Positions 2,795 through 47,901 of a stretch of DNA of 64,000 bases are shown in pieces. Numbering within the stretch: the stretch's first letter is position 1; each line of letters begins with the position of its first letter. The position numbers were made by a program, and so were the translations under genes. The stretch comes from an uncultured Pseudobdellovibrionaceae bacterium (GTDB lineage Bacteria > Bdellovibrionota > FAC87 > UBA2466): assembly GCA_964604555.1 (NCBI GenBank), contig CAZRZK010000001.1, forward strand, positions 205,991 to 269,990, in the 5' to 3' direction. The notes beneath the pieces were generated by a model, which had not been told where the DNA came from, ran no database searches, and saw nothing but the letters and a program-made list of their open reading frames with translations.

Positions 2795-2869
<75 letters not shown>

Positions 2870-4006: not shown

Positions 4007-4007
4007 G

Positions 4008-10942: not shown

Positions 10943-10955
10943 AATTACGACAGAA

Positions 10956-11441: not shown

Positions 11442-11832
11442 AGAAATATTTGATTTCCCTATCTGCCGAGGTTGGGCTGTCGGAACCATGCACGCTATTG
11501 GCTTCCATGCTTTCGGCAAAAAGAGCGCGAATCGTCTGTGGGGCTGCTTTTGCGGGATCCGTTGCCCCCATTAATTTGCGGTATTTTTCCACTGCGCCTT
11601 GCCCTTCAAGCACCATTAGAAGAACGGGTCCGCTGGTCATGAAAGAGACGAGCGAATTGAAAAAGGGACGTGCCTTGTGTTCGGCGTAGAATCCTTCCGC
11701 CTCCGATTTTGAGAGGGATTTCATCTTGGCTTCGACGATGGAGAGACCTTCCTCTTCAATCATCGCCAGAATTTTTCCGATGTGTTTGGCCTTTACGGCA
11801 TTGGGTTTAATAATTGCAAATGTTTTTTCCAC
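11434..11832 (-). CDS. ndk: Nucleoside diphosphate kinase
   Basis: [13 protein letters not shown]...[19 protein letters not shown]; active-site His region NSVHGSDS. Confidence 0.9.
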
Positions 11833-11847
11833 AGACTACTCGCTTTC

Positions 11848-13889: not shown

Positions 13890-14821
13890 TTGAGCCCTTC
13901 AATGACATCAACCAACGTTTTTACCGCTTCGGTCGATTTTTTCAGGTTGGCACTTTCAGTTTCATTGAGATCGAGTTGGATCACCTTCTCAAGGCCGTTT
14001 GATCCAATTTTTGCGAGCACGCCCACGAAGAGTCCCTTCACTCCATACTCCCCTTCTAAGGAGATGGCGCAAGGAAGGACCCGTTTCTTATCCCGTACAA
14101 TTGCCTCTACCATCTGCACTACCGATGCCGAAGGGGCATAGAAGGCGGAACCGGTTTTGAGGTAATTGACGATTTCAATTCCGCCATTTTTAGTCCGCTC
14201 GACGATTTCATTGATTTTCTCAGTCGAAAGGAATTTCTCTAAAGGTACTCCCGCGATGGAGCAAAAGCGGGTCATGGGAACCATGGTGTCTCCATGGCCA
14301 CCATAAACAAATCCGTGTACATCTTGCACGCTCACATCGGCGGCCTCTGCGACAAAGGTGCGAAACCGAGCTGAATCGAGAACTCCTGCCATTCCTAATA
14401 CTCGCTCTCGGGGGAATCCACTCACCTTTTTAGCAACATAGGCCATTGCATCTAAAGGGTTGGAGACCACAACTAGGATTGACTTCGGAGAATACTTCAC
14501 GACCGATTGGGTGACTTCGGTCACAATCTTGGTATTGATTTTCAGAAGGTCGTCACGGGTCATGCCGGGTTTGCGAGGAAGTCCAGCAGTGATCACCACC
14601 ACATCGGAATTTTCCGTTGCGGCGTAATCGTTGCTACCGGTAATCCGGAGATCAAACCCTTCGACCGGTCCCGATTGCAAAAGATCCAGCGCTTTCCCTT
14701 GGGGGATCCCTTCGGCGATATCGACGAGAACCACATCTCCCAGTTCTTTGCTGGCAATCCAATGAGCGGCGGTGGCGCCGACGTTTCCGGCGCCGACAAT
14801 AGTAATTTTGGGGCGTTTCAT
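13886..14821 (-). CDS. mdh: Malate dehydrogenase (LDH-like family)
   Basis: [15 protein letters not shown] Rossmann motif, [19 protein letters not shown], catalytic His region; 311 aa. Confidence 0.9.
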
Positions 14822-14838
14822 TTGAAGTCTCCTGACTC

Positions 14839-16068
14839 TTAAAGGTTATCAATAATCTTGGAAGCAAACTCGGAACACTTTACCTCTTTGGCTCCGGCCA
14901 TTTGCCTTGCAAAATCGTAAGTCACCGTTTTTTGATCGATCGTTTTTTGGATCGAGGTGATGATCGAATCGGCCGCCTCTTGCCAGCCCATATGTTCAAA
15001 CATCATCACGCCGCTCAAAATAACGGAGCAGGGATTCACTTTATCCTGTCCCGCGTATTTCGGAGCAGTTCCATGGGTGGCTTCGAAGATGGCACTTCGA
15101 TCGCCGATGTTGGCGCCGGGGCTGATTCCCAATCCGCCCACTTGTGCCGTGATAGCGTCACTTAAGTAATCGCCATTCAGGTTTGGAGTTGCGATGACTG
15201 AGTATTCATCGGGGCGCAAGAGCACCTGCTGGAACATGCTATCGGCGATGCGATCCTTAATGAGGACCTTTCCCGCAGGAGTTTTGCCGGCATATTTTTC
15301 ATAGACTTCATCTTCGGAGATGGTCTGGGCGTTAAACTCTTCCTTACCAAGTTGATAGCCCCATTCGCGGAAGGCCCCTTCGGTAAACTTCATGATGTTC
15401 CCTTTGTGGACGAGCGTCACACTGGGAGCCCCCTTTTTAAGGGCGTATTCGATGGCCATCTTAATGAGCCGCTTACTGCCGAATGGGCTCATCGGTTTAA
15501 TCCCGATGCCTGAATCATCCCGAATCTTGGTCTTCATCTGGGTGTTTAGATACTCGATAACTTGCTTTGCTTCAGTGGACCCGCTCTTCCACTCATAGCC
15601 GGCGTAAACGTCTTCGGTGTTTTCCCGGAAGATCACCATATTGACCTTCTCCGGGTTTTTCATGGGGCTCGGAACCCCATTAAAGTAGCGAACCGGGCGG
15701 ATGCAGCAATAGAGATCCAAAAGTCGTCGCAGCGCTACGTTGAGCGATCGTAACCCGCCGCCAACTGGGGTGCTCAATGGCCCCTTAATCGCAATGCTGT
15801 GCTCCTTAATGATCTGGAGCGTCTCTTCTGGGAGCCAGTCATTTTTAAGTTTGCTGGCCTTTTCACCCGCCAAAACCTCTTTCCACACGATTCCGCGCTT
15901 GCCGCCATAGCTCTTTTTTACCGCTGCATCAAATACCCGCACGCTCGCGGCCCAAATATCTGGTCCGGTTCCATCTCCTTCGATGAAGGGGATGATGGGG
16001 TATGATGGAACTTGAATTTTATTAGAAGGGGAGTAGGTGATTTTTTCACCCTTGTGCTGGTCGCTCAT
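14839..16068 (-). CDS. icd: NADP-dependent isocitrate dehydrogenase
   Basis: 409 aa; [23 protein letters not shown] metal-binding motif typical of prokaryotic Icd. Confidence 0.9.
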
Positions 16069-32560: not shown

Positions 32561-32630
32561 CCTAAGAAGGTTCTCTGAGTCTAAACAAAAAGAGATCTTT
32601 TACATTACTGGTCAGTAGCAGGCGTCGGGG
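32561..32630. repeat. Right 70 bp direct repeat (overlaps 3' end of SDR gene)
   Basis: Partner of 29721..29790; contains intact SDR C-terminal codons and stop. Confidence 0.6.
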
Positions 32631-33374
32631 AATAAAGCGGTGAAATCGGAGCATTAGTTTTCCATTTAAGGTGGGGAAGATCTCCAGCTGTTTTCGATTG
32701 AGACCTGCCAAAATCTCTTTGGCCACCTTTTCAGGGGTAGAGATAAAAGGGGCCATCCAATTGGGAAGGCCTCCCTTTTGCCCGCGTTCAATCATGGAGG
32801 TGTCGACAAAGCCGGGAGAGGCGAGCACCAGTTTTACGGGTGAATCTTTTAATTGGAGCTCTTGTCGTAGGGCCCGCGTGAAGCCGACGACGGCATGCTT
32901 GCTGGCTGAATAGGAGGTGAGGTAGGGACAGCTGATATGGCCTGCCACCGAGGCAATATTCACGATGATCCCTTTCCCTTGTTGTTCCATCTTCTCAATA
33001 GCAAGACGAGTTCCTAGGACCACTCCCCCTAAGTTGATCCGAAGGGTGGTTTCATATTCTTCGAAACTCTGCCGCATGAAATCGCCTTTGCCACTGATAC
33101 CGGCATTGTTGATCCATAGAAAGATAGGTTTGGCTTGTCCCGATATTTTTGTGATCGCCTCTTTCATCTGGGTGGGATTAGCAATATCAACGGCAAGCGC
33201 GCTGAAGGAATGGCCTTCTTTAGAGGCGGCGTCTTCTAAAGCAGCCAAATCTTTTTGATTCCTATCGAGTCCCCAAACATGGGCGCCCAGATTGAGGCAC
33301 TGGAGGGTGAGGCATTTTCCAATTCCACCAGCCGCTCCGGTGATCACCACTGTTTTTCCCATAAGTGATTTCAT
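32562..33374 (-). CDS. Short-chain dehydrogenase/reductase (SDR) family oxidoreductase
   Basis: TGAAGGIGKCL cofactor motif, NNAG, catalytic YxxxK (YSASK); 270 aa. Confidence 0.85.
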   Translation of the reverse strand: MKSLMGKTVVITGAAGGIGKCLTLQCLNLGAHVWGLDRNQKDLAALEDAASKEGHSFSALAVDIANPTQMKEAITKISGQAKPIFLWINNAGISGKGDFMRQSFEEYETTLRINLGGVVLGTRLAIEKMEQQGKGIIVNIASVAGHISCPYLTSYSASKHAVVGFTRALRQELQLKDSPVKLVLASPGFVDTSMIERGQKGGLPNWMAPFISTPEKVAKEILAGLNRKQLEIFPTLNGKLMLRFHRFIPRRLLLTSNVKDLFLFRLREPS

Positions 33375-34222
33375 AAAAATTCTCCCTGATATTGGGGCGA
33401 GCGCTCCAACCAGCGGGCCCCGTCCTGAGTCACCACTAAAATTTCCTCAAACTTCGCCCCGAAATGGGCGGTGCCTAGGTGAGGTTCAATCGCCCAAAGT
33501 CCTCTCATATCCCCTTCAAAATGAGGGGTCATGAGTTGTCCGAGCAATCCTCGGGAAAGGAGGGTCCAATAGGATTGCCAGCCAAAGTGGAACAATTTTC
33601 CCATCGGTAGTTTTTCATTCGTTTCATGCACCCGGTGGCCGAGCACCGAAAAGGGGTAGAGTTGGTGGACATTGGAGTAGTTTTTGGCCTTTAGCTTTTG
33701 ATCAATCGTCTTCCAGACATCTGATCCTTTGAGAGCCGATGAAAAAAGGTAGGGAATTTCATCCCGCAGCGATTTTAAAAAGTTTTTGGCGGAGAGGAGC
33801 TCCTGATTTTCACCCAGAGATCCGGTGTAACCAATATCTGCGATAAAACCCTGATAGATAGGGGCGACATCTAAAATGAAAACTTCGCCAGGGCGCAAGA
33901 CCCGTTTACTGGGAGCATATTCCCCATAATGGCGAACCCCTTCAAAGCGGGTACGATCCCCATACCAAACGAATGGATGGTGGAAGAAGGCCTTTACTCC
34001 AGAGTCTCGCAGGTAGGTTTCGATCAGATCGGCCGCCGCTTTTTCGGTCCAGCCTTCCTGCAACATTTTCGCAATTTCATTCACCGCCTGCTGAGCAAGG
34101 CGTTGCGCAGCCAGGTGTCCTGCCATTTTCGATTCATCCACCTCTCGATTGGCCGCCGGGGAGACAAGGTTTAGGACGGGTAATGAACCGATTTTAGAGG
34201 CTTGTTGAAAGAAAAGTTTCAT
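33371..34222 (-). CDS. M24-family (pita-bread fold) metallopeptidase-like protein
   Basis: Metal-ligand context conserved: ILDVAP..ADIGYT (D,D), GHRVHE (H,E), AIEPH, FEEILVVTQDG (E,E); 283 aa. Confidence 0.6.
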   Translation of the reverse strand: MKLFFQQASKIGSLPVLNLVSPAANREVDESKMAGHLAAQRLAQQAVNEIAKMLQEGWTEKAAADLIETYLRDSGVKAFFHHPFVWYGDRTRFEGVRHYGEYAPSKRVLRPGEVFILDVAPIYQGFIADIGYTGSLGENQELLSAKNFLKSLRDEIPYLFSSALKGSDVWKTIDQKLKAKNYSNVHQLYPFSVLGHRVHETNEKLPMGKLFHFGWQSYWTLLSRGLLGQLMTPHFEGDMRGLWAIEPHLGTAHFGAKFEEILVVTQDGARWLERSPQYQGEFL

Positions 34223-34224
34223 AG

Positions 34225-35079
34225 TTACGTCTCAAAAAATTTTTCTAGGAGCCGATTCATCTGCTCAGGGTTTTCGCGAAAAATCCAATGGCCTCCCGAT
34301 AGAGTTCGCACCGTTAAATGGCGGGCCTCTTTTTCCAATTCGTCGATGGAAGGGGGAAGTACGAAAGGATCCCGTTGTCCCCAAACGACCATTACCGGCG
34401 ATTGAATGGGTGGAGAGGAGAAGTCCCTCAACAGAAGCTGCTTCGCAAAGGAACGGTATTGGATCATGGGGTTTGAGATAAAGGGGCCTTTTTTGAGAAG
34501 CGGAGGCCGCTTTGAGGGATGGAGCCCCCCCATAAAATAGGCAAACTTTAAAAGAGGTGAGGCAAATCCCATCGAGATCTTTTGTGGAAGATAGGGAATG
34601 AGCATGGGATAGATATACCAAGAGTGGAGCCATTGAGAGGGTCGGCTTTTAGCACGTGAGCGCAGTTGCCCCAGGGAAAGGGAGTTGATGATCACCATCT
34701 TGGCGAGCCGCTTTTTTAAATAACCGGCCAATGCCCAGGCAACGGGACCTGCGAGATCATGGGCGACGATATAAACTCTTTTTCGATGATCGGGATCGAC
34801 CCTCTCCAAGAGTTGGAGGTAGTCGAGACATAAGGAGTTGAGGTGGTGGCGGGAAAAATTGGGGGTCTTTTCGGTCGAGGGGTGGGTACCAATCGCATAG
34901 GGACAGAGGACATGGAATCTCTTTGCAAAATATTCGGTCTGGAAATCCCAAACCTCAGGGCCATCGGGGTAGCCATGCAAAAAGAAAAGGATTGGCCCTT
35001 CGGTATTGCCCCCTTCATACCAATGGACGGGGAGCTTCCTAAAGGTGGCCTGTTGTTCTATGAAGGAATCCAACCGCAT
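34225..35079 (-). CDS. Alpha/beta-hydrolase fold protein (epoxide-hydrolase/haloalkane-dehalogenase-like)
   Basis: ILFFLHGYPDG oxyanion region, nucleophile elbow VAHDLAG, 284 aa. Confidence 0.8.
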   Translation of the reverse strand: MRLDSFIEQQATFRKLPVHWYEGGNTEGPILFFLHGYPDGPEVWDFQTEYFAKRFHVLCPYAIGTHPSTEKTPNFSRHHLNSLCLDYLQLLERVDPDHRKRVYIVAHDLAGPVAWALAGYLKKRLAKMVIINSLSLGQLRSRAKSRPSQWLHSWYIYPMLIPYLPQKISMGFASPLLKFAYFMGGLHPSKRPPLLKKGPFISNPMIQYRSFAKQLLLRDFSSPPIQSPVMVVWGQRDPFVLPPSIDELEKEARHLTVRTLSGGHWIFRENPEQMNRLLEKFFET

Positions 35080-35272: not shown

Positions 35273-36598
35273 ATGAGAAAATGGATATTGGGCTTGGTTT
35301 TCTTAAACCCCTTTTTGATGGCGCCGTTATCGATAGCTGAAGATCGTCAGGTGGTTCGAGTAGCAGCGCTGAATAATGAAGATGCGCCTATCTTAATTGC
35401 AGAGCATGCGGTTAAAAAAAGAGTCGTTGACCATACAAATTTGTATTTGCGGTTTTCCAATGGAGAGGCATTTGCCACTCTTTCCGGATTGGATCTCAGT
35501 CGGCGAATGTACGGGATGCACATTCCAGATACATCCGATATTTACCTCCATGACATGATCGCCCGGCTGGAGGGCGGGTATTTTCTATTGTTGGATTTGA
35601 AGCAACGGGACATCAGAAAACCAAAGTGGTGGACATTACTGATCGCTTTTGATCCCCATGGCAAAATGGATGGGGGATTCGGTTCAGGAGGAATCCAGCT
35701 CCTCAAAGGCTTTGATCCGGAAGACCACTCCATGAAAATGGCAATGACATTGGATGAAAACCGTTTAGTGGTGGCGGAAACGAATCATTATAATCAGCAA
35801 CACTATATTTTTTCCTATAGGCGGGAGAGCACGCGTTTATATCATCTTAATCCCATCGATAATAGTTTAACGGAAAAATTCCTCCCGCAGCTCGATTTCG
35901 GTCTTCCAGATCATTTCAAAGCGCGGTGTGCTTCGGTGAAAACCTTTAATTACATGGATTCGGAAGTTGTTTTAGAAGAGGTTCAAGGAATCGTATTGCT
36001 GCACAGTGGAGAGATCGGATTGGTGACCCGTTTAACGTACCCCTTTGACAAGCACGAGATAAATGAGCTCATGCCCATCCGGGTTCGGTTATTCAATCGG
36101 CAGGGGACTGCTTTGGTTGAGGAATTTGGCAAAAATGGGATTTTAACGGAGTATGGAAATAGGGATTCGAAATTGCCTTCGGGCGGACAGCGAAGTTTTA
36201 CGGTGCAATTTGAGCAAGGGGGATCGGGAATTGTATTTGAAGTTTACACTTATTTCACTCCCCGTTCCCGCTATGAAGCCTTTGCAAAGGGGGAAAGAAT
36301 TCCGGCCGACTGGCTCAATATCATTAGGGTGGACAAAGATGCCGGTCGAAAGGATGTCTATTCAGGGCCAAACAAAGAGGTTTTGGATTCGGTGCTTGCG
36401 AATGTTGTGTCTTTGTATCCCAAGATCGAGGAGGGGAAAAACATTAATCCCGTTCCATTCCGAGCGGTGATGACGTTAGGAAGATCCTATTTCGATGAAC
36501 CGGCAATCATAGGAACTGTAAATCCCTCACCCTATGCAGCAGTAGATGCGCATTCGGGCTGTCGAGAGATCCTCAATCATGCCCTTCAGAATCCCTAA
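35273..36598 (+). CDS. Hypothetical secreted protein
   Basis: Signal peptide MRKWILGLVFLNPFLMAPLSIA; 441 aa; no domain recognised. Confidence 0.5.
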   Translation: MRKWILGLVFLNPFLMAPLSIAEDRQVVRVAALNNEDAPILIAEHAVKKRVVDHTNLYLRFSNGEAFATLSGLDLSRRMYGMHIPDTSDIYLHDMIARLEGGYFLLLDLKQRDIRKPKWWTLLIAFDPHGKMDGGFGSGGIQLLKGFDPEDHSMKMAMTLDENRLVVAETNHYNQQHYIFSYRRESTRLYHLNPIDNSLTEKFLPQLDFGLPDHFKARCASVKTFNYMDSEVVLEEVQGIVLLHSGEIGLVTRLTYPFDKHEINELMPIRVRLFNRQGTALVEEFGKNGILTEYGNRDSKLPSGGQRSFTVQFEQGGSGIVFEVYTYFTPRSRYEAFAKGERIPADWLNIIRVDKDAGRKDVYSGPNKEVLDSVLANVVSLYPKIEEGKNINPVPFRAVMTLGRSYFDEPAIIGTVNPSPYAAVDAHSGCREILNHALQNP

Positions 36599-36607
36599 AA
36601 ATAGCTT

Positions 36608-38479
36608 TTATCTCCGGACCTTTGGCTCCAGCCACCAGTGGATCATCTTGTCCAAGTTTTCAATTTCACTATGTGGAATATCTTCGTTCAGCGCTTTGAG
36701 GACCATCGTCTCGAATTCCTCCCGTTCCTTTGGATTCCGCATCCAATAGTTACTGAATTCGGTCTGGATCGTCTTTCGGTATTCAATGAAATGGAGATCC
36801 ACTTCGGGGGTAAAAGCGGTCGTTTCCACGATGAATCGGGCCATTGTTTCCGCAGCGATCACTTTTGCAAAGGGATCCGAATTAGAAAGCTCCATATAGG
36901 AACGCAGTTGGATGAGAGCGGGTCTCAGACTGGTGCGGACTTGGTTGGAGTTCCATTCCCCCGTCTCGGCATTGGCAGAAATAACCTGTCTCAGTCGGTT
37001 GAAAGTGGCTTCAAAGTGCTCTTCAAAGACATTCCTTCTATTTCCATTATTATAGGCATTTTTTGAAGTTCCACTTTTAACAAAGGCATCTACCGGCATT
37101 GCGTAGCCGACCAAGAAGGGGGCGGTAAGAAAAGAGATGATAGAGACGGCAATCGTTGCCCCGGCACCTATTGCACTATCAGTTGTGCTTAGAACCACGA
37201 CTCCATTAGTGGCAGAGACGGTGAAAGCTGAAAGTCCAAAGTAAGAGACCGCCTTTCGGGTTGGGATAATGGATCGGAGCTGTTCGGCAATCGGCTTAGT
37301 GATACGAACCAGGACTTCATGCAATTCCTTCTGATTGCAGTGGGTTCCGCATTCTTTCAGCGATTTATCGGCGATTTCTAAAGAATGTTTTGAGATCGCA
37401 CCACGAAAATACCGGCGAACGAACCATCGATCTTCTTGCTTAGCGAGATCTTCGAGCATCTTGGTGATGGAAATGACTGTTTGAAAGGATTCGGTCAGGT
37501 GGGCACTGAACTTCTCAGAGGCGCAGCCCTCTCCACAACGTTTTTTTGCCCTCTCGACTGCGACATCGGTCAACTTGTCGATTGAATTACGCAACCATCT
37601 TTTTAAGAAATATCCTTCCTCTTTTGAAACCAACTGCTGGATCTGCTTTTTTGCTTCTAAGATGACAGCTAAATGGTTGAGAAGTTCTTTAGAAAGCTCC
37701 TCGGGACCACAAGAAGCTCCACATTTTTGCAAAGAACGTTGGAGGGCTATCTTTGCCCCTCTTTCTAATGGCCTCCAAGTCCACCATCTCCACCAGCTGA
37801 TATGAATCGAGTTTTTTTCGAGTTCCTTTTTAATAGAATTGCCGAGGTCCCGAAGCGTTTTGAAGGATTCGGCCAAATAGGAACCAAGTTGCTCTGGCGG
37901 GCAGGTGGGGCCACACTTCTCAAGGGCCCGGTCTAAAGCAGTGTCAGCGACACTTTCTAAGGTATTACGGAACCATTGAGAGGAGAGGGAACGGCTGCCA
38001 CGGGCCTCTTGAACCACCTTTTCCAACTCTGTTTTCACCGCAATTGCCTGAAGAACAGCCGCGCGGAGGTGATTTTGGAACTCTGCTGCCGAACAGTTAG
38101 GGCCACAATACCTTATTGCCCTCTGTATCAGCTGATCGGTAATGGAATCGAGAGAATTACGGAGCCAACGTCGGTAATCCAGATCCTCCGTAGCGGTACG
38201 GATTTCACGATCCAGCAACGCAAGGGTTTTGAAGGAGTCCTTGAGCTGATCTTCAAATTCCTTAGGGGTAGGGTCCTCTCCACAGATTTTACGGGTGGCC
38301 TCGATGACCTCATTAGCTCGTTGATAAAGGCGATTTCTTTCGGATCGGCTTTCGGCAATTTCATAAATGGTGCGATCGGCCAGCATTTTGGCGGTTCTGG
38401 CGCAGACATATTCGATTGCATGGAGAGAGTTCTGGAGTAGGAGGGAAAAACCAAGGACTAAAAATAATTTTTTGCTCAC
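36608..38479 (-). CDS. Secreted repeat protein: six ~55 aa helical repeats each with CGxxC (one degenerate) followed by TM segment and about 170 aa C-terminal domain; unknown function
   Basis: Signal peptide MSKKLFLVLGFSLLLQNSLHA; repeats ...RWLRNS(L/I)DxxTDxxxxRAxxxCG(PN/PT/AS/EG/TH)Cxx(E/K)(F/L)xxxLxxSFxTL...; hydrophobic stretch VVVLSTTDSAIGAGATIAVSIISFLTAPFLVGYA. Confidence 0.55.
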   Translation of the reverse strand: MSKKLFLVLGFSLLLQNSLHAIEYVCARTAKMLADRTIYEIAESRSERNRLYQRANEVIEATRKICGEDPTPKEFEDQLKDSFKTLALLDREIRTATEDLDYRRWLRNSLDSITDQLIQRAIRYCGPNCSAAEFQNHLRAAVLQAIAVKTELEKVVQEARGSRSLSSQWFRNTLESVADTALDRALEKCGPTCPPEQLGSYLAESFKTLRDLGNSIKKELEKNSIHISWWRWWTWRPLERGAKIALQRSLQKCGASCGPEELSKELLNHLAVILEAKKQIQQLVSKEEGYFLKRWLRNSIDKLTDVAVERAKKRCGEGCASEKFSAHLTESFQTVISITKMLEDLAKQEDRWFVRRYFRGAISKHSLEIADKSLKECGTHCNQKELHEVLVRITKPIAEQLRSIIPTRKAVSYFGLSAFTVSATNGVVVLSTTDSAIGAGATIAVSIISFLTAPFLVGYAMPVDAFVKSGTSKNAYNNGNRRNVFEEHFEATFNRLRQVISANAETGEWNSNQVRTSLRPALIQLRSYMELSNSDPFAKVIAAETMARFIVETTAFTPEVDLHFIEYRKTIQTEFSNYWMRNPKEREEFETMVLKALNEDIPHSEIENLDKMIHWWLEPKVRR

Positions 38480-38690: not shown

Positions 38691-39686
38691 TTAAGCGATC
38701 GAGAGACGGGGGCGGGGCATAGGGATCGAAAAAACCCCCTGCTTTTTGGCGGAGAGCTGGGTTTTTTTGTGGAAATGGGGATTTAAAACCAAACTGACGT
38801 GAGGAGCGGTCACAAAAAGTCGACGAGCGAGCTCCCATTTGGGGAGTTTTTTGAAAAGAGGTTCGCAACTGGCGATCACTTCGAAAAAAGGGTGGGCCTT
38901 TTTGAATTTTTTCGCCTCAAAAATCTTGGCCATCTCCGCCAACATCCAACTCGTGGAAAAGATTTGCCCAAAAATGAGGTCGGTTTTGGAGTGAAAATAG
39001 GTGCTGAGTCCTCGATTTTGGTGTCCAATCCATTCCAACATCATGAATGCATAGTTATGGTGACGAGATTCCTCTTCCATGTGCTTAAGATGGACTTGAT
39101 AATAGAGGGGATCGATTTCAGTCTTTGCGGGTTGGAGGTTTTTAAAGAATAAAATCGACACCTCCTCAACGGCAGCCACCACCCACCAAAAAGCATGTCC
39201 TCCCCACTGTGAATTGGCCCGGATGGAACTTAAAAAGAGGGATCCAAACACCTTAGGAAGGATAGGATCGAGTTGTTCCCGGTCCATCCCATTGGCAGAA
39301 CAAAAAAGTTCGATGTATTTCGAAAAGGCCCGGGAGTGTTTCTGTTCTTCCTCGAAGAAAAGCTCACCCAGTTGTGTAAACTCGGGGCCCACGGGTCGTT
39401 GGCGCAGGAGCGTTTCCCAGGCGGCATCCTTCAATTTATGGATCACATCCTCCATCTCTCCAATAGAGGAGTTGATGAGCAGTCCCAAGAGTTGGGAAAT
39501 GGCCAGTCGCTGTTCGGCACTTGCTCCGGGGAAGACAATCGCTTCATCATCTAAAGGAAGGAAGGGTTTATTGGGATCGACCCCTAAATGCCAGGGAACC
39601 CCTGTTTCCAGATCCCAGGCATACCTCTCTTGTCGTTTGACCTGTAACTCTAGCGCCTCGGGATCGAAAAGAGTTTTCGCGTACAT
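38691..39686 (-). CDS. Ferritin-like di-iron carboxylate oxygenase (AurF-like family)
   Basis: Two ExxH motifs (EEQKH, EEESRHH) with preceding carboxylates in predicted helices; 331 aa. Confidence 0.5.
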   Translation of the reverse strand: MYAKTLFDPEALELQVKRQERYAWDLETGVPWHLGVDPNKPFLPLDDEAIVFPGASAEQRLAISQLLGLLINSSIGEMEDVIHKLKDAAWETLLRQRPVGPEFTQLGELFFEEEQKHSRAFSKYIELFCSANGMDREQLDPILPKVFGSLFLSSIRANSQWGGHAFWWVVAAVEEVSILFFKNLQPAKTEIDPLYYQVHLKHMEEESRHHNYAFMMLEWIGHQNRGLSTYFHSKTDLIFGQIFSTSWMLAEMAKIFEAKKFKKAHPFFEVIASCEPLFKKLPKWELARRLFVTAPHVSLVLNPHFHKKTQLSAKKQGVFSIPMPRPRLSIA

Positions 39687-39727
39687 GGTGGACTATTTAA
39701 TTTATTATAACTATTATCGGCCCACTT

Positions 39728-40648
39728 ATGGAAAATCTCATTATTATCGGTTCTGGCCCGGCGGGTTATACAGCGGCAATTTATGCCGCCCGCGCAAACT
39801 TAAACCCTCTTCAGATTGAAGGCTACCAATCAGGGGGCCTTTTAATGTTAACAAGTGACGTGGAGAATTTCCCCGGTTTTCCGGAAGGGATCATGGGGCC
39901 CGAGCTCATGCAAAAATTCCGCAAACAGGCGGAACGTTTCGGGACCCGCCTTATTCAGAAGGATTGCACCGCCGTCGATTTTAAAGGAAAGACCTTTAAA
40001 GTAATGGTCGGGAAGGAAACCTACGAATCGAAAACGGTGATTATCTCTACCGGTGCTTCCACGAAATGGTTGGGACTGGAGTCGGAAAAGCGGCTTCTCG
40101 GAAAAGGGGTTTCCAGCTGTGCCACCTGTGACGGCGCCTTCTTCAAAGGCATGCCTTTAGTGGTAGCAGGTGGAGGAGATTCGGCCATGGAAGAGGCCAA
40201 TTTCTTGACCCGATTTGCTTCTAAAGTGACCCTTGTCCATCGAAGAGAGGTCTTTCGCGCCTCCAAGATCATGCTCGATCGGGCGAAAAATAACCCCAAG
40301 ATCGAGTTTGTGCTGAATAGCGAAATCGAGGAGATTTTGGGTGCCGACGGCGTCAAAGGGGTGCGGATCAAAAACACCCAAAATGGTGAAAAGCGAGAAA
40401 TTGCCTGCGATGGCGTCTTTGTGGCGATTGGACATGAGCCGAACACCGCCATCTTTAAGGGGCAAGTGGATCTCGACGAGAAGGGGTATATTCTCATGAA
40501 GAACCGCCCCACCACGGCGACCAGCGTGAAAGGGGTGTTTGCAGCCGGAGATGTTCAGGATATCATCTATAGACAGGCCATTACGGCTGCGGCCTCCGGT
40601 TGCCAATCGGCCATCGATGCCGAACGGTATTTAGAGACGTTACACTAA
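39728..40648 (+). CDS. trxB: Thioredoxin reductase
   Basis: [13 protein letters not shown] motif, redox-active [21 protein letters not shown] motif; 306 aa. Confidence 0.9.
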
Positions 40649-40665
40649 AATCAAAAGGAGCTCAT

Positions 40666-42576
40666 ATGCCCTCCCTCATCTGGACGCTCTGCTTTTTGGC
40701 GGGTATTGGATTTTTCTCTTGGCAACTCTGGCAGCGGTTTGGGGTGCTTCTAAAGTTACGTCGAGATGACGGGCGTGACTACAGTCAAAAAACCTTTGGG
40801 AAGCGGATCAGCAACACAATTATATACGCCTTCGGGCAGTGGAAGTTCTTCCGCGACGATCAACCAGCTGGCGTAATGCATATCGTGATCTTCTGGGGAT
40901 TCATGACCCTCTCCCTCCAAGTCATCACCATGTTTGCTCGGGGGTGGTTTCCCGAATTCCACATTCCTATCCCAGGATACCATTACATGCGCGATGCTTT
41001 TGAAGTTGGCGTTTTGGTCGCTGTTTCGGTAGCGCTGTTCCGATGGCTTGTGTTGAAGCCGACCCGCCTTTTTGGATTTCTTCCGGCGGAGAAAAGATTG
41101 CGCTCTCAATCACACGGTGAAGCGATCCTCATCCTTTGCTTTATCGCCACCATTATGATCTCAGGACTTTTATATGATTATGCCTCCCCCGAGATCGCAA
41201 GTGCGGCTTGGTGGGTACATAACTTGGTTATTTTAGTTTTCTTGAACCTTTTACCGCGTTCGAAGCACTTTCACATCATTACCGCCGTTGCAAATGTCTT
41301 CTTAGGGAAGGTGGAGCCCAAAGGGCAGCTCGCCAAGAAAGACTTTACGAGCGACAATCCTCTTTTTGGACGTTCCACCGTCAATCAATTTACCTGGAAG
41401 CAAGCGCTCGACATGTACAGCTGCACCGAATGCGGCCGTTGTTCGAGCATGTGCCCTGCGACAGCTACCGGGAAGCCACTCGCTCCCCGCCAATTTTTAT
41501 TGGATCTCCGGGATGCAGTATATGGTGCACAACCCCAACTTTTAAAAGCAGCCGCGGGTGCTGAAGGGTTTGAAACGATAGTAGGGGAAGGAAAAGCGGT
41601 CATCGATGAGGTGATTTGGTCCTGTGTGCAATGCCGTGCCTGTGAAGAGGCCTGTCCGGTCAATATTGAATACGTCGATAAAATTGTCGATATTCGGCAG
41701 CACTTGGTGCAAGAGGCCTCCCGCTTCCCCGCTGAGTTGAATCGCGCCTTTAAAGGAATGGAGACCCAATCGAACCCTTGGGGCATCAGCAGCGCCGAGA
41801 GAGAGGCCTGGTCGGAAGGATTAAGTGTCCCGAGACTTTCGGAGAAACCCAATCCTGAATACCTTTATTATGTCGGGTGTGGAGGCTCCTTCGATGCCAA
41901 CAGCAAAAAATCTTCTCAATCCTTTATTAAGATCTTAAACGCTGCCAAAGTCGATTTTGCCATCTTGGGAAATTCGGAACTTTGCAACGGCGATTCTGCC
42001 CGGCGATTGGGGAATGAATACCTTTATCAGTCGATGGCAGAGGCTTTAGTGAATACCCTCAACAGCAACGGGATCAAAAAAATATTGGTCAATTGCCCCC
42101 ATTGTTTCAACACCATCAGCAAGGAATATCCGCAATTTGGTGGCCATTATCAAGTCATAGCGGCAGCAGAGTTCGTGAATCAACTGGTCAAAGAGGGGAA
42201 AATCAAGCCGACCAAGAACCTGGATAAAAACATCGTCTATCACGACTCTTGTTACTACGGGCGCTTCAGCGATCTCTATAGCGAGCCACGTGATGTGTTG
42301 AAATCGATTCCAGGCGTGCAGCTTTCCGAGATGGAACGTTCGAAAGACAAGAGCATGTGCTGCGGAGCCGGTGGCGGAAGAGTCTGGATGGAAGAACCGG
42401 CCGACCAACGGGTGAATGTGCTCCGAACCGAACAGGCTCTGGAGAAAAAACCGGATGTCATCGCAACTTCATGCCCCTTCTGCAAAATCATGATCGGCAG
42501 CGGAGTGAATGAAAAAGGCCTAGCCGAAAAAGTGGGCGTGATGGACGTCATGGAAATCGTCGCCAATCAACTTTAA
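40666..42576 (+). CDS. Membrane-anchored iron-sulfur oxidoreductase with two 4Fe-4S ferredoxin motifs and two CCG domains (HdrD/GlpC/LutA-like)
   Basis: Start ATG 40666 with AAAAGGAG RBS (ORF-track start 40600 overlaps trxB); N-terminal 5-6 TM helices; CTECGRCSSMCP and CVQCRACEEACP clusters; CCG-type Cys motifs (CGGSF..., CCGAGGG). Confidence 0.75.
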   Translation: MPSLIWTLCFLAGIGFFSWQLWQRFGVLLKLRRDDGRDYSQKTFGKRISNTIIYAFGQWKFFRDDQPAGVMHIVIFWGFMTLSLQVITMFARGWFPEFHIPIPGYHYMRDAFEVGVLVAVSVALFRWLVLKPTRLFGFLPAEKRLRSQSHGEAILILCFIATIMISGLLYDYASPEIASAAWWVHNLVILVFLNLLPRSKHFHIITAVANVFLGKVEPKGQLAKKDFTSDNPLFGRSTVNQFTWKQALDMYSCTECGRCSSMCPATATGKPLAPRQFLLDLRDAVYGAQPQLLKAAAGAEGFETIVGEGKAVIDEVIWSCVQCRACEEACPVNIEYVDKIVDIRQHLVQEASRFPAELNRAFKGMETQSNPWGISSAEREAWSEGLSVPRLSEKPNPEYLYYVGCGGSFDANSKKSSQSFIKILNAAKVDFAILGNSELCNGDSARRLGNEYLYQSMAEALVNTLNSNGIKKILVNCPHCFNTISKEYPQFGGHYQVIAAAEFVNQLVKEGKIKPTKNLDKNIVYHDSCYYGRFSDLYSEPRDVLKSIPGVQLSEMERSKDKSMCCGAGGGRVWMEEPADQRVNVLRTEQALEKKPDVIATSCPFCKIMIGSGVNEKGLAEKVGVMDVMEIVANQL

Positions 42577-43789: not shown

Positions 43790-44491
43790 TTATTTCCTTT
43801 TAATACAAAGAACGCCTGAAAGAACTTCCGGCTCCTGCTTTATTTCTTTATCCGAAAGGAGGTCAAAGACAGCCTTGTCTTCACGCAACCAAACTTGAAA
43901 ATGACGAGGGGTGAGCCCCCCGGCTTCTTTAAAAGACAACTTTAATTTTTCCAACGAAGGACGAATATCCTCTTTCTGAGGGATCACCCACTTCACATCG
44001 TTACAGGCAGCCTCACCTGCTTTTTGCGATTTAAGTTCGGGAAGTAATAGCCAACTGACGACGCCATCTCGAGTTATTGTCGGATTTTTCTTTTCAGTTC
44101 TTTTCAAAGGGAGGCTGTTTTTTTTCATCAAGCTTAAATAGGGGGCCATGATCTCTTCTTGCACCTCTAATTCCATATCAAAGAAGGTTCCCCACTTGGT
44201 TTTTTCCAATTGGATGGCCGCCTCATTCTTTTCGGCCTTTGAAGAAACCGACGTTTGGGTGATGAGTTTCTCTAATGCAACCACCTCATCCAAGGTCCAA
44301 GTACTTTTCTTCTGTTCTACCTCTCTGCAGATCTGAGAAAGGGTTTCATAGGCCTTCCCGAGATATCGATTGGCAATCCAATCTCCACCCGATTCATTTC
44401 CGGCCATCAAAGTTGAATGGACTAAGCAGAGGCTAAATATCAACTGGGAATAACTGCATCGAAAGTGCATAAACTCTCCTCTTTTTTCCAC
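43790..44491 (-). CDS. Hypothetical protein (possible signal peptide); start uncertain because of overlap with upstream gene
   Basis: 233 aa ORF; N-terminus hydrophobic LIFSLCLVHSTLMAG. Confidence 0.4.
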   Translation of the reverse strand: MEKRGEFMHFRCSYSQLIFSLCLVHSTLMAGNESGGDWIANRYLGKAYETLSQICREVEQKKSTWTLDEVVALEKLITQTSVSSKAEKNEAAIQLEKTKWGTFFDMELEVQEEIMAPYLSLMKKNSLPLKRTEKKNPTITRDGVVSWLLLPELKSQKAGEAACNDVKWVIPQKEDIRPSLEKLKLSFKEAGGLTPRHFQVWLREDKAVFDLLSDKEIKQEPEVLSGVLCIKRK

Positions 44492-45197
44492 GTTCCAACT
44501 GTTCGCAAACGGTTCGGCGAAATGATTTCATGCTTTGGCGGGCATCCTCCAGTTTTGTCGGGTCGGCCGCCATCACCACGGTGTAATATGCCAAATCTTC
44601 CGGCAGGTTCTTATCCAAAGCCTCTTCTGCCTTTTTCAAATATTCCTGGGTATGGTTTCGGATCGCCGGATCGGCCAAGGTATCTTGAGTGGCCAGGGGC
44701 GGTGCGATCTGCCGATATTTTCCGTCATTTTCTTCGATCAATTTCAGACGCTTCATGCGTTCTAATGCTTCTTCCGCTTCCCGTTTTAAAATGCCTAGCT
44801 TTTTTGCAATCCATTCCGGATCGGAGTTGGAGTTCGGCAGCTCTGAGAGGCTCAGCATAGCGTAGTGATACCACTGCGAGATCAGTTGGAAGGTGTCGAG
44901 TTCCAACACCTGATAAATATCTTCCGCCGTTGCCGCCTTCTTTGCATTGACCGCTTTTAAAAGTTCAGCGCGATCTTTAGGGGAGAGATTCAGCCTCAAG
45001 GCGATCTGTTTGGCCATTTTTCGGGTCAGACGTCGTTTTCCAGAGAGCACTCCTGATAAGGTCGCTGGACTTATCCCTAATTTTCCGGCAAAGGCCCGCA
45101 TCGAAAGGGCAGGGTTTTTCTTTTGACGACTTTGGAACTCCCCCTGAAGCCATCGCCGATGGTTTCGAAAGGATTGTTCCGTGATGAGAGTTTCCAT
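44433..45197 (-). CDS. HTH-containing putative transcriptional regulator of unknown family
   Basis: N-terminal HTH-like LSMRAFAGKLGISPATLSGVLSGKRRLT; 254 aa; divergent from gene 45385. Confidence 0.5.
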   Translation of the reverse strand: METLITEQSFRNHRRWLQGEFQSRQKKNPALSMRAFAGKLGISPATLSGVLSGKRRLTRKMAKQIALRLNLSPKDRAELLKAVNAKKAATAEDIYQVLELDTFQLISQWYHYAMLSLSELPNSNSDPEWIAKKLGILKREAEEALERMKRLKLIEENDGKYRQIAPPLATQDTLADPAIRNHTQEYLKKAEEALDKNLPEDLAYYTVVMAADPTKLEDARQSMKSFRRTVCEQLERGKKRRVYALSMQLFPVDI

Positions 45198-45384: not shown

Positions 45385-47901
45385 ATGTTTCAGATTCTTT
45401 TTTTGATGGCTTTGTCTCTCGGAGCAGAGGAAAACCAACTCAATCAAAAGGTGACCACGCTTTTTAATAGTAAATGCCAAAAGTGCCATAACGCGGAATT
45501 GGCTGAAGGGGATCTCGATCTGACTCAGCTGAAAATGACCGCTGCCCAGAAATTGGAACTCCCCAAGCGCATCGCCCCCGGTGGCGGAATGCCTAAAGGT
45601 GGCGCTCCACTCTCCAAGGAGGAGATTGCACTGGTGGCTGAATGGTTACGGACCACCGATGTGAAACCACCGGTCGTGAAAAGAAAACTAGAACTGAAAG
45701 ATGATATTGATCCTGAGGATCATAAACAGGTATTGGAGCTCCAGATTTTAAGAGTGATCCTGAATGACTTGACCCGTCTCTCTGAAGCGGAAGCGTTGAA
45801 TGCCCGCTATCTCACACTGACCCATTTATGGGTAGCAGGAGAGTCTGAACAGAAAATGGAAGTGTATCGACAAGGCTTAACTAAACTTTTAAACAGCCTT
45901 TCGTGGAAGTCGGGGTTGCATCACCCCGTAGCAATAGATAAGCACAAAACGATTTTGCGCTTTAGCCAGGCTGCTTTGGGCTGGAAGGATTTGCACTGGA
46001 ATCTATTAGCAGCTACCGATCCTTATTTTCGTAAATTGAATGAACCAATCTACAACCTGCTCAGCAAATTTAATCCGGAGGTTCCCGTTCCCTATGTTCG
46101 CGGTGATTCATTTGCCCAAAGGGTAAGCCGTTCTCCTTTTTATGAAGATATTTTGGAGCTTCCCAAAACGGCGAAACAATTGGCCGGTTTTTTTGAGAGT
46201 CCTTTCGAAAAAAATATCCAAGAAGGAAAAGTGGCCCGAGCCGGGTTTCGGAAATCGAATGTTTCAGGTTTCAACCGTCTTATCGAACGCCATGAATTAG
46301 ATACAAAGTTATATAGAACTGTTGGGGGAGGGTATTACTGGAGAAGTTACGATTTCGACGGCAATTCCGGGGATAAGGATCTCTTTAAAAACCCTTTTAC
46401 CGCAGTCGATAAATCCACCAAGAAATTTAATCATGGCGGTGGGGAAGTGATTTTCAGTCTACCCAATGGTATGCAAGCCTATTGGTTGGAAAAGGCCGAT
46501 GGCACTCGTCTTGATATTGCCCCTACCGAAATTGTTTCTGATACCAGTCGTCGTGATACCCGCATCTTCAATGGGATTAGCTGCATGGGCTGCCATGTCG
46601 GAGGACTTCACATTAAATTCGATTCGATCCGTGAACATGCAGAACGGACCCCTGCCGCCTTTAAAGCGGACGATCTCGCACTCATAAAAAAGACCTATAA
46701 GGACCAGACTGAAATGGCCGCCATTTTTAAGAAGGATATCGAACGGTATCAAGCGGCGCTCGGAAAGATCGGGGTCAAAGAGGAGGGGAAACTCGATCCC
46801 ATTCGAACTCTGGTCGATCGATTTGAAGCTCCGGTCGATTTAGAAAATGCCGCGGCAGAACTTGGGATATCGATCGAGCAATTGAAGGCCGAGGCGAAAC
46901 GCAATGTGGAGGTCAGTGAAGCGTTGAGTGAACTTGAGAATGGCGGTTTGCCTCGGGATACATTTATCAAATTCTTTGTTAGCTTCATCCTTTCCGGTGA
47001 TGGAAAAGATAAATTCGGCGCCTTAAAGATCCACAAGCATCCAGAATTTGATCCCCATTTTGAATTTGTAGAAATTCCAGCTGGAAAGTTTCTGATGGGA
47101 AGTCCTAAGACGGAAAAGGGGAGAGATTCTGATCCTGTGGAAAAGCAAAGAGAGGTCACCATTTCCGAGCCATTTGAAATGCAAACGACGCACGTTACTC
47201 AGTCGTTATATGAAAAGGTAAATGGCAGGAATCCTTCTCTTCGCGTAGCAAGAATTAAGCCAGTTGAAAACGTGTCATGGCTTCAAGCCAATCAATTCGC
47301 CCTCGATCTTACTCTACTTCGAAACGACGGCTACACCTATCGCCTACCGACCGATGCAGAATGGGAATATGCTGCGCGTGCCGGAACTCAAACCGCCTAT
47401 TATTTTGGAGACGATCCGGGCAAAGATAATGAGATATTAAAACAGCATGCTTGGTTTGATAAGAAGGAAACGACTTCTGTGGCTTCTCTTAAACCGAATC
47501 CTTGGGGACTCTACGATATGTATGGAAATGCGTTTCAATGGGTAGAAGATATGTTTTCAGAAGATTATCTCAATAATCGAATTCTTCGAGGGGGAGGATT
47601 CCATCATTCACTTTCCGACAGATTACGTTCGGCATCAAAAACTCACTTTAATCGGGATTATGGAGACACTACTACCGGTTTTAGATTAGTGCGAGTAAAG
47701 AAAAAGAAAGCCGAGACTCCTGCCACAAAACCGGCAGTCGTCACCCCGAAGCTCATCGATCCGATGCCATATATTCCACCCCAGCCTTCGCAACCAGTGC
47801 GCACCTCAAACCCTGTAACGCCACTTCCGGCTAACGCAACCATTCAAGAGCGAATCAAATGGTGGGAACAGAACTACCCGCACCTCGTTCCTAAGAAGTA
47901 A
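45385..47901 (+). CDS. Secreted multidomain protein: PSCyt1-like c-type cytochrome domain (CQKCH) + central domain with second CxxCH (CMGCH) + C-terminal formylglycine-generating-enzyme (FGE-sulfatase/SUMF1-like) domain + Pro-rich tail
   Basis: Signal peptide; N-term ...CQKCHNAELAEGDLDL...GGGMPKGG...LVAEWL; C-term ...FVEIPAGKFLMGSP...NVSWLQANQFALDL...YRLPTDAEWEYAARAG...NPWGLYDMYGNAFQWVED...ILRGGGF...GFRLVR. Confidence 0.7.
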   Translation: MFQILFLMALSLGAEENQLNQKVTTLFNSKCQKCHNAELAEGDLDLTQLKMTAAQKLELPKRIAPGGGMPKGGAPLSKEEIALVAEWLRTTDVKPPVVKRKLELKDDIDPEDHKQVLELQILRVILNDLTRLSEAEALNARYLTLTHLWVAGESEQKMEVYRQGLTKLLNSLSWKSGLHHPVAIDKHKTILRFSQAALGWKDLHWNLLAATDPYFRKLNEPIYNLLSKFNPEVPVPYVRGDSFAQRVSRSPFYEDILELPKTAKQLAGFFESPFEKNIQEGKVARAGFRKSNVSGFNRLIERHELDTKLYRTVGGGYYWRSYDFDGNSGDKDLFKNPFTAVDKSTKKFNHGGGEVIFSLPNGMQAYWLEKADGTRLDIAPTEIVSDTSRRDTRIFNGISCMGCHVGGLHIKFDSIREHAERTPAAFKADDLALIKKTYKDQTEMAAIFKKDIERYQAALGKIGVKEEGKLDPIRTLVDRFEAPVDLENAAAELGISIEQLKAEAKRNVEVSEALSELENGGLPRDTFIKFFVSFILSGDGKDKFGALKIHKHPEFDPHFEFVEIPAGKFLMGSPKTEKGRDSDPVEKQREVTISEPFEMQTTHVTQSLYEKVNGRNPSLRVARIKPVENVSWLQANQFALDLTLLRNDGYTYRLPTDAEWEYAARAGTQTAYYFGDDPGKDNEILKQHAWFDKKETTSVASLKPNPWGLYDMYGNAFQWVEDMFSEDYLNNRILRGGGFHHSLSDRLRSASKTHFNRDYGDTTTGFRLVRVKKKKAETPATKPAVVTPKLIDPMPYIPPQPSQPVRTSNPVTPLPANATIQERIKWWEQNYPHLVPKK

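Follow-up and report, generated by a model that had tools for sequence, protein, structure and literature searches.

Alpha/alpha solenoids with a disulfide in each repeat are known from the Helicobacter proteins HcpB and HcpC and from COA7, and a disulfide reductase activity has been reported for COA7, a disulfide-containing Sel1-like repeat (SLR) protein (PMC8892353). In the 64,000-nucleotide stretch of DNA that we analyzed (the window), one gene encodes a 623-aa protein that we regard as analogous to the Helicobacter Hcp and COA7 SLR proteins, and not as a member of their family. The predicted likeness lies in the setting (exported or in the intermembrane space), in the alpha/alpha-hairpin solenoid built from several tandem copies, in a Cys pair per repeat that would link both helices, and in a probable role as a binding platform rather than a classical enzyme. 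In contrast to SLR units of 36–44 aa, the unit here is 62–64 aa long with two helices of 23–30 residues; the measured period of 59–64 aa lies outside the SLR repeat length of ~36–44 aa, and no Sel1 or TPR profile was found in Pfam, even at E <= 10, or in NCBIfam. Also unlike the Hcp and COA7 proteins, the paired Cys residues are four residues apart across the predicted turn, and the array is followed by a putative hydrophobic hairpin and an unrelated helical domain.

Sco proteins combine a thioredoxin fold with a conserved distal His. The 623-aa protein resembles Sco1/SenC in its C-x3-C spacing, in a periplasmic or intermembrane space setting and in its closeness to a membrane anchor, but it is all-helical in our models, lacks the conserved His and has no thioredoxin-like or Sco family match. 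The twin C-x3-C and C-x9-C proteins (small Tims, CHCH proteins and plant alpha-hairpinins) likewise combine disulfide-stabilized helical hairpins, an oxidizing compartment and a C-x3-C element; however, they carry a C-x3-C on each helix and two inter-helix disulfides, whereas here there is one C-x3-C per predicted hairpin, placed at the turn and repeated in tandem. The alpha/alpha solenoids recovered by structure comparison (DHR and THR designs, the TPR proteins LGN/Pins, IFIT, alpha-SNAP and the CATCHR rods of the exocyst) match at a TM-score of at most 0.30 and an identity of at most 17%, which is a likeness of generic fold class only, and none has Cys at its turns.

Coding sequence, export signal and repeat array

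The open reading frame spans 36608..38479 on the minus strand and encodes 623 aa and a stop codon from a GTG, the first start codon past the upstream stop. A purine-rich GAGG/GAGAAGA stretch precedes this GTG. The N-terminal 269 aa were found identical on an independent Logan assembly contig. The encoded protein comprises a signal peptide, six gap-free repeats, a moderately hydrophobic two-segment region of ~50 aa and a 163-aa C-terminal helical domain; all its features lie on the minus strand. The window also carries lptG, a gene for an OmpA-family protein and alaS, which identify it as part of the chromosome of a diderm, so the host has a periplasm. The initial annotation had called the protein secreted, and this is upheld by a Sec-type signal peptide at aa 1–21 (38417..38479), read by inspection as MSKK / LFLVLGFSLLL / QNSLHA with cleavage before IEY and with a 19-aa hydropathy peak of 1.42; the relatives described below carry an equivalent signal. 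Export and a helical make-up are both supported, the first by this signal peptide predicted by inspection and the second by structural models. The predicted mature protein opens with the start of an N-terminal helix (38378..38416), which contains Cys26 (38402-38404) 5 aa past the predicted cleavage site.

Six C-G anchors at aa 66, 125, 189, 253, 315 and 377 follow one another at 59, 64, 64, 62 and 62 aa, giving a unit of ~62–63 aa, and six 63-aa units can be aligned without gaps (repeat alignment A1). Comparisons of unit against unit by BLASTP reach E-values as low as 2e-14, and each unit scores between 23.4 and 55.3 bits against a profile built from the other five, where the best among 1000 shuffles reaches no more than 9.9 bits. 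Repeat 1 (aa 35–95; 38195..38377) scores 24.3 bits in this leave-one-out comparison and carries Cys66 only, in CGEDP. The remaining five have the CGxxC form: CGPNC with Cys125 and Cys129 in repeat 2 (aa 96–157; 38009..38194; 41.8 bits), CGPTC with Cys189 and Cys193 in repeat 3 (aa 158–221; 37817..38008; 49.2 bits), CGASC with Cys253 and Cys257 in repeat 4 (aa 222–283; 37631..37816; 28.0 bits), CGEGC with Cys315 and Cys319 in repeat 5 (aa 284–345; 37445..37630; 55.3 bits), and CGTHC with Cys377 and Cys381 in repeat 6 (aa 346–406; 37262..37444; 23.4 bits). When the mature protein was shuffled 100,000 times, the highest count of C-x3-C motifs was 4, and five or more never occurred.

These measurements leave the proposed count of six repeats in place, on the gap-free alignment and the leave-one-out scores, and replace the proposed length of ~55 aa by a period of 59–64 aa. 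The central CGxxC motif described in the initial annotation is present in five repeats, with the cysteines in C-x3-C spacing, and the first copy, described there as degenerate, is indeed so. Of the consensus given for the repeats, the element (R/Q)W(L/F)RN(S/T)(L/I)(D/E) is clean in repeats 2, 3 and 5 only; it has diverged to SWWRWWTWRPLE in repeat 4, RRYFRGAIS in repeat 6 and SERNRLY in repeat 1. Repeat 4 also contains a Trp/Arg cluster, SWWRWWTWRP, at aa 228–237.

Hydrophobic region, C-terminal domain and relatives

An Ala/Ser/Thr/Gly/Val-rich region of moderate hydrophobicity follows the array at aa 410–460 (37100..37252; model pLDDT 28–35), with hydropathy peaks at aa 414–432 and 439–457 separated by STTDSA; it would form a helical hairpin or else cross the membrane once. 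Beyond it lies the C-terminal domain (aa 461–623; 36611..37099), so that the TM-like segment and the domain of roughly 170 aa noted at the outset are both recovered. This domain contains no Cys, is kept in the relatives and has no family or PDB match in profile and PDB searches; the fold search with its model is meaningless, at a pLDDT of 49.6 and a best E of 1.4. The best-conserved motif of the family alignment falls within it at aa 473–505 (36965..37063), with the pattern R-[NH]-[VI]-x-E-[EK]-x-[FY]-E ... R-x-x-[IL]-S ... G, and near its end stands a W-W-L-x-P motif (HWWLEP, aa 614–619; 36623..36640) that reads SWLREP and WWLRP in the relatives. The summed Hessa scale gives +2 to +8 kcal/mol for the hydrophobic segments of all three proteins.

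When 1.84 billion cluster representatives were scanned exhaustively with HMMER, only two distant relatives came up, P0002 and P0003 (E = 4.7e-4). Both are all-helical proteins of 340–364 aa with a central hydrophobic stretch, and each carries a signal peptide and, 7–8 aa past the predicted cleavage site, one N-proximal Cys, together with a single C-x3-C unit that aligns with repeat 6 of the 623-aa protein, a hydrophobic region with the same two-segment feature, and a C-terminal domain. Each has three Cys residues in all. The Cys pair is conserved as CVKGC and CREVC, followed in both by an acidic N-cap box, and the Gly after the first Cys is not retained; two relatives at this E-value make for thin conservation statistics.

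Further searches support the assignment to a very small orphan family, with three singleton sequences among the 1.84 billion cluster representatives. Nothing scored above the cut-offs of Pfam, NCBIfam or PHROGs, and the PDB yielded no meaningful sequence match to the protein, to the repeat profile A1 or to the family profile A2, in agreement with the earlier remark that the repeat family was not a recognized one. A word-index search of 5.8 billion clusters with the same three queries retrieved P0003 and the query protein, and nothing else. Scans of genome, metagenome and viral contigs, which included the conserved pattern of aa 473–505, gave no further locus, plasmids gave no match by tblastn, and, run against the window and L002, the A1 and A2 profiles detected no paralogue. 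A Pfam match to NNH1 (PF22733) that covers only one of the six repeats and, at 20.3 bits, falls short of the gathering score (27) was set aside as helical noise. The 623-aa protein is genuine, but as an exported bacterial protein it stands almost alone.

The genes near it include trxB, which is divergently transcribed, and genes for an AurF-like protein, an FeS/CCG protein and a DUF4423 protein. The neighborhoods of the relatives share no gene with this one, and trxB and the FeS gene are absent there; we have accordingly rejected trxB, the AurF-like gene and the FeS/CCG gene as a functional context, and the adjacent trxB is probably coincidental.

Cysteine pairs at the predicted hairpin turns

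All twelve Cys residues fall within the exported N-terminal part, and the last 218 aa have none; their even number fits full oxidation. In the AF2 model (pLDDT 60.4, pTM 0.53, and so of low confidence, with matches to generic solenoids only) 13 helices are arranged in hairpins, and helix A ends at Cys125, Cys189, Cys253 and Cys315, followed by a 5-residue loop and helix B. A second model (pLDDT 49.6) gives the turn of repeat 6 the same layout, with the first Cys ending helix A and the second starting helix B. Both models are of low confidence, and the position of the Cys residues at the turn is a prediction from them. Both Cys residues of each pair are in the i/i+3/i+4/i+7 hydrophobic register of helices A and B; together with their places at the end of one helix and the start of the next, this resembles a structural staple of the turn. 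For the degenerate first repeat, the AF2 model sets helix 23–41 antiparallel to helix 45–67, and Cys26 probably pairs with Cys66, the only Cys of that repeat.

The initial annotation had likened the motif to thioredoxin-like or metal-binding dithiols, and this likeness is weakened, as C-x3-C differs by one residue from the C-x2-C of thioredoxin and also from MxCxxC-type motifs. Its accompanying judgment that the context is not that of thioredoxin is sound: with C-x3-C spacing, all-helical models and no thioredoxin-like Pfam match, the protein lacks the marks of a thioredoxin-fold C-x2-C oxidoreductase. A c-type heme site, C-x(2-4)-C-H, is absent as well, since the residue past the second Cys is S, P, G, A or N and never His. 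The residues between the paired cysteines vary (PN, PT, AS, EG and TH in the repeats; VKG and REV in the relatives), and neither the repeat alignment nor the family alignment contains a conserved His, Met or Asp partner near the motif. The suggested check on conservation of the Cys pairs came out in their favor, with C-x3-C kept in P0002 and P0003, the only relatives found.

Closely spaced periplasmic Cys pairs are normally oxidized. The cysteines are most likely structural disulfide staples rather than a thioredoxin-like active site, and turn staples are favored because the Cys pair is conserved with the acidic N-cap box and the Gly is not, because both residues lie in the core-facing register, and because the Cys count is even. 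We propose that Sec export to the oxidizing periplasm would allow an intra-turn disulfide to form between the two Cys residues of each unit. In this arrangement helix A would end with the first Cys, next to which stands a C-capping Gly, and the second Cys would occupy the helix B N-cap, ahead of a [S/P/T]-x-x-E capping box. Each hairpin would thereby be stapled by its disulfide, the degenerate unit 1 by Cys26 and Cys66, and the twelve cysteines would yield six disulfides.

Explanations for the array and its membrane region

The cysteines might instead be functional dithiols. The five C-x3-C pairs would then form a periplasmic multi-site redox relay or a scaffold for soft metals (Cu(I), Zn, Hg) at the membrane, a reading that we regard as unlikely. 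Apart from the Cys pair, only one Leu is invariant across the repeats; both relatives retain the pair, and the models place its second Cys at a helix N-terminus, which is also a hallmark of reactive thiols. The odd number of three Cys residues in each relative would leave one thiol free or intermolecular, which fits a metal or redox role as well as it fits a staple, and the three could form a three-thiolate site. Helical redox proteins without a thioredoxin fold exist (CcmH), and Sco binds Cu through C-x3-C. There is, moreover, the reductase precedent of COA7 (PMC8892353), and the trxB and FeS/CCG genes lie nearby. Against this stand the lack of a conserved His, Met or Asp partner, the variable residues between the cysteines and the core-facing register of both; TrxB is cytoplasmic, its gene is divergent and missing from the relatives' neighborhoods, and no CcdA/DsbD-type partner was found among the adjacent genes scanned. 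The periplasmic redox or metal-binding scaffold of the initial annotation is possible, but no test result favors it over structural disulfides. A more far-reaching version would make the protein the expanded founder of a class of envelope proteins not described before, perhaps from Bdellovibrio-like predators. In it, the C-x3-C turns along a rigid helical rod would form a functional thiol array at the membrane surface that relays electrons, disulfides or soft metals at several sites, with a membrane-inserting hairpin coupling the rod to a new conserved C-terminal domain; we hold this version to be improbable.

The hydrophobic region invites other readings of the whole protein. If a hairpin were buried in a soluble helical bundle and inserted into a target membrane, whether of prey or the cell's own outer membrane, the protein could be a secreted, conditionally membrane-inserting effector with the repeat rod serving reach or oligomerization; hairpins of colicin-type, ClyA-family and T3SS-translocator proteins behave in this way. 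The signal peptide, segments too weak on the Hessa scale for confident translocon integration, positive charges at both ends of the hairpin around a short uncharged or acidic connecting loop (by inspection), the SWWRWWTWRP cluster with the conserved C-terminal WWL motif, the all-helical relatives with their central hydrophobic stretch and the nearby DUF4423, a domain found in Bdellovibrio, are all consistent with this. We nevertheless consider it distinctly unlikely, given that no HlyE, Bacillus_HBL (ClyA/Hbl/Nhe), colicin or other toxin family matches at E <= 10, that structural matches carry no weight with a C-terminal model of pLDDT 49.6, that no secretion-system or immunity gene lies alongside, and that the taxonomic assignment is only a hint. 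Segment 2 (aa 439–457) is the only stretch with transmembrane-like hydropathy (1.96), and it could be the single span of a bitopic type I inner-membrane protein with a periplasmic repeat domain for sensing or binding and a cytoplasmic C-terminal domain for signaling or anchoring. The charges past this segment, K/K/RR in the 623-aa protein and K/R-rich stretches in both relatives, agree with the positive-inside rule and fit a cytoplasmic C-terminal domain, and so a single span, better than a hairpin; the best-conserved motif of the family comes just past the segment, and the C-terminal domain is free of Cys. The same segment is poorly hydrophobic in P0002, however (1.40; +7.8), the C-terminal domain matches no known signaling domain, and no partner regulator is conserved nearby, which leaves the bitopic reading with a low probability. 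Exceedingly improbable is a kinship with the stalk and paddle of LeoBC, a bacterial dynamin-like protein of the Eleos defense system, in a form without the GTPase. PADLOC matched aa 275–532 to positions 328–560 of the 601 in the LeoBC profile (E = 7.1e-6, 23.4 bits), and 0/9 block-shuffled controls did so, but fragment 275–532 gave no match when scanned by itself. The single fragment with a match was the N-terminal one (E = 0.0098), and it fell on another part of the profile, so the score merely adds up weak helix-to-helix matches. P0002 and P0003 do not match, a P-loop ([AG]xxxxGK[ST]) is absent and there is no LeoA gene nearby, and the candidate was rejected after these fragment and shuffle controls.

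We give about an even chance to the explanation that the protein is an envelope-exported, membrane-associated alpha-solenoid with disulfide-stapled hairpin turns. By alignment, the core of the family consists of a signal peptide, a Cys near the mature N-terminus, one long helix-turn-helix with a C-x3-C turn, the two-segment hydrophobic region and a helical C-terminal domain of ~165 aa ending in WWL-x-P. The hydrophobic region and the Trp-rich motifs would hold the protein at the membrane or insert it there, and the copies of the unit, stacking as an alpha/alpha solenoid rod, would serve as a rigid spacer or as a binding platform, with a length that can vary. If this reading is right, it describes a second, independent natural way to disulfide-locked alpha/alpha solenoids for an oxidizing compartment, beside the SLR proteins of the Hcp/COA7 type, and the compact C-x3-C staple across a hairpin turn could be borrowed by protein designers to rigidify helical repeat proteins. 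It touches no long-standing open question. It does document an extremely rare family whose members have one or six copies of the unit, a difference that would neatly illustrate how a repeat can be amplified while the membrane-associated core is conserved. The six-copy array would have arisen by tandem duplications of the 62–64-aa helix-turn-helix unit; at the DNA level the repeats share matches of only 18–22 nt, which is chance-like, and the duplications are therefore old.

The repeat array of the 623-residue protein

The open reading frame at 36608-38479 on the minus strand of the window encodes a protein of 623 residues. It begins with a GTG, the earliest start codon downstream of the preceding stop, and a purine-rich stretch (GAGG/GAGAAGA) lies 5' of this codon. 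By inspection, the N-terminus (MSKK-LFLVLGFSLLL-QNSLHA|IEY) has the appearance of a Sec signal peptide, with a basic n-region, an 11-residue h-region and an alanine at position -1. The protein contains twelve cysteines: Cys26, five residues past the predicted cleavage site, Cys66, and five C-G-x-x-C pairs at residues 125/129, 189/193, 253/257, 315/319 and 377/381. A 3306 bp Logan contig (L001), assembled independently from reads, contains trxB and the AurF-like gene together with codons 1-269 of the target gene, which encode an identical protein sequence; the source organism thus occurs in the public run SRR16481183.

The initial annotation described six repeats of about 55 residues centred on CGxxC. 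The six units are borne out, but successive C-G anchors lie 59, 64, 64, 62 and 62 residues apart, which gives a unit of about 63 residues. The observation itself is real, with its period and its motif spacing (C-x3-C) corrected, and the interpretation in the initial annotation is partly supported. Six 63-residue windows align with zero gaps, and the first cysteine (Cys1), the glycine and one leucine are invariant. The array far exceeds what chance would produce. BLASTP between units gives E-values as low as 2e-14, and in a leave-one-out test a profile of the other five detects every unit at 23-55 bits (at most 9.9 bits for the best of 1000 shuffles). When the mature protein was shuffled 100,000 times, no shuffle had five C-x3-C motifs. 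The DNA of the repeats retains no more than chance-like matches of 18-22 nt, which implies that the duplications are old. In the fourth repeat a Trp/Arg cluster, SWWRWWTWRP (residues 228-237; window 37769-37798, minus strand), takes the place of the usual RRWLRNSLD element; with five tryptophans in eight residues, this stretch recalls segments of the membrane-interface or antimicrobial-peptide type.

A very rare family with a shared core

The protein is an orphan with next to no relatives. Searches of Pfam, NCBIfam and PHROGs returned no match above threshold, and neither the protein, the repeat profile nor the family profile matched any PDB sequence, in keeping with the earlier remark that the repeat family was not recognised. 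Among 5.8 billion clusters, a word-index search with the protein returned it alone, as a singleton. Scanning 1.84 billion cluster representatives exhaustively with phmmer added just two proteins, P0002 (364 residues) and P0003 (340 residues), each a singleton cluster and each covering residues 339-620 with E = 4.7e-4; the two match each other by BLASTP with E = 1e-12. No other relatives came from additional profile searches or from scanning collections of genomes, metagenomes, viruses and plasmids.

Alignment of the three proteins shows that both relatives have a signal peptide, one N-proximal cysteine 7-8 residues past the predicted cleavage site, and one helix-turn-helix unit whose C-x3-C (CVKGC, CREVC) directly precedes [S/T]-x-E-E. 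The cysteine pair is therefore kept in both homologues, so that this comparison, proposed in the initial annotation, does not refute its idea; the glycine after Cys1 is not conserved. C-terminal to the repeats, the target has an Ala/Ser/Thr/Gly/Val-rich region (residues 410-460) with two Kyte-Doolittle peaks in a 19-residue window (1.31 at 414-432 and 1.96 at 439-457), then a cysteine-free C-terminal part of 163 residues. Both relatives share the two-segment region, whose hydrophobicity is weak in all three proteins, and the C-terminal domain, which has the motif R-[NH]-[VI]-x-E-[EK]-x-[FY]-E...R..[IL]S...G directly past the hydrophobic part and ends in WWL-x-P. These shared features define a family core of one unit, the hydrophobic region and the C-terminal domain, and the target is an expanded member, with six units to the relatives' one.

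Proposed disulfide-locked hairpins and the alternatives

The single-sequence AlphaFold2 model of residues 22-410 is mediocre (pLDDT 60.4, pTM 0.53; repeats 3-5 at 62-81), and the family-core model (residues 341-623, three sequences) is poor (pLDDT 49.6; 28-35 across the hydrophobic region). Both are wholly helical. In the former, the first helix of repeats 2-5 stops exactly at Cys1 (125, 189, 253, 315), and a five-residue loop (G-x-x-C-x) leads into the second helix; the sixth repeat has the same layout in the family-core model. Under helix-capping rules, the glycine past Cys1 would fit a C-cap, and [S/P/T/N]-x-x-E past the second cysteine (Cys2) an N-capping box. Conserved hydrophobic positions are spaced i/i+3/i+4/i+7, and both cysteines are in this register, so that they would face the hairpin core at its tip. 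A fold search with the C-terminal model gave no usable match.

The most likely mechanism, to which we give about an even chance, is an exported rod of six alpha/alpha hairpins with disulfide-locked tips and membrane-interface association. After Sec export, the N-terminal part would fold in the oxidising periplasm, a C(i)-C(i+4) disulfide locking the tip of each hairpin. In the degenerate first repeat Cys26-Cys66 may be the equivalent lock, because the model places helix 23-41 antiparallel to helix 45-67; one lock per hairpin would then account for all twelve cysteines as six disulfides. The two-segment region, the SWWRWWTWRP cluster and the terminal WWL motif suggest association with the membrane interface. 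Function probably resides at the end formed by the conserved C-terminal domain, and the array would serve as a spacer or as a platform for binding, of variable length (one unit versus six). Of known analogues, HcpB/HcpC and COA7, Sel1-like repeat proteins that contain disulfides (PMC8892353), come closest; the target does not belong with them, given its profile match, repeat length and cysteine placement. As modelled, the architecture would be of a known kind, a disulfide-stapled alpha/alpha solenoid, built from repeats of a new sequence type: a neat structural motif in a very rare family, with so far no mechanism-level surprise.

The functional redox or metal dithiol array suggested in the initial annotation appears unlikely. 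An odd cysteine count in the relatives and the position of Cys2 at a helix N-terminus speak for it, but the residues between the cysteines vary, co-ligands are lacking (no conserved His or Met near C-x3-C in the three proteins) and the gene neighbourhood is not conserved. The likeness of CGxxC to thioredoxin motifs does not hold, the spacing being C-x3-C rather than C-x2-C. A secreted effector with conditional membrane insertion, which the charged flanks and weak hydrophobicity of the segments would fit, is improbable; no toxin family was matched, nor a toxin fold with the low-confidence models. The positive-inside rule favours a bitopic protein with a cytoplasmic C-terminal domain, a reading that we consider quite improbable. 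Both of these readings concern topology and function and are compatible with structural disulfides.

A stalk of a dynamin-like LeoBC protein was rejected: the 23-bit PADLOC match vanished once the matched fragment was scanned alone, P0002 and P0003 have no such match, and the absence of a P-loop in the target counts against it. The match was not compositional (0/9 block-shuffles match LeoBC).

Genomic context

The window is diderm chromosomal DNA, with alaS, lptG, fumC and an OmpA-family protein gene. Within 38691-42576 lie a minus-strand AurF-like di-iron gene (PF11583, E = 7e-6, below gathering score), 211 bp upstream of the target gene on the same strand; a divergent plus-strand trxB (thioredoxin reductase); and, beyond it, a gene for an HdrD/GlcF-like membrane protein of 658 residues that combines 4Fe-4S dicluster and CCG domains. 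With the listed TTG (40600) as its start, this last gene would overlap trxB; the real start is probably an ATG some 63 nt further in. Convergent with the target gene, stop codons 9 bp apart, is a plus-strand gene (35273-36598) for a 441-residue secreted orphan with a Sec-type signal peptide, which has no Pfam or PADLOC family and whose exact sequence is absent from a 15-billion-protein collection. None of these four genes lies beside P0002 or P0003, so the trxB link is probably coincidental.

Genes for HTH + DUF4423 proteins occur near the target (44433-45197, minus strand) and near P0002 (14845-15717 of its locus, plus strand). DUF4423 also occurs in Bdellovibrio bacteriovorus (Bd3700; PMC12546842), which hints weakly that Bdellovibrio-like bacteria may be where the family lives. 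Short-chain dehydrogenase, M24-family metallopeptidase-like and alpha/beta hydrolase genes (32562-35079, minus strand) are tightly packed or overlapping and probably form one operon. An 838-residue fusion of a cytochrome c domain (Cytochrome_CBB3, N-terminal) and an FGE-sulfatase (formylglycine-generating enzyme-like) domain is encoded at 45385-47901 on the plus strand. Rfam matches in the window are limited to two tRNA genes, tRNA-Cys(GCA) (2795-2869, plus strand) and tRNA-Arg(TCG) (4007-4081, minus strand). Within 10001-16000, GC content is 0.42 at 10-12 kb and then steps up to 0.51-0.52 at 12-16 kb, the window mean being about 0.47.
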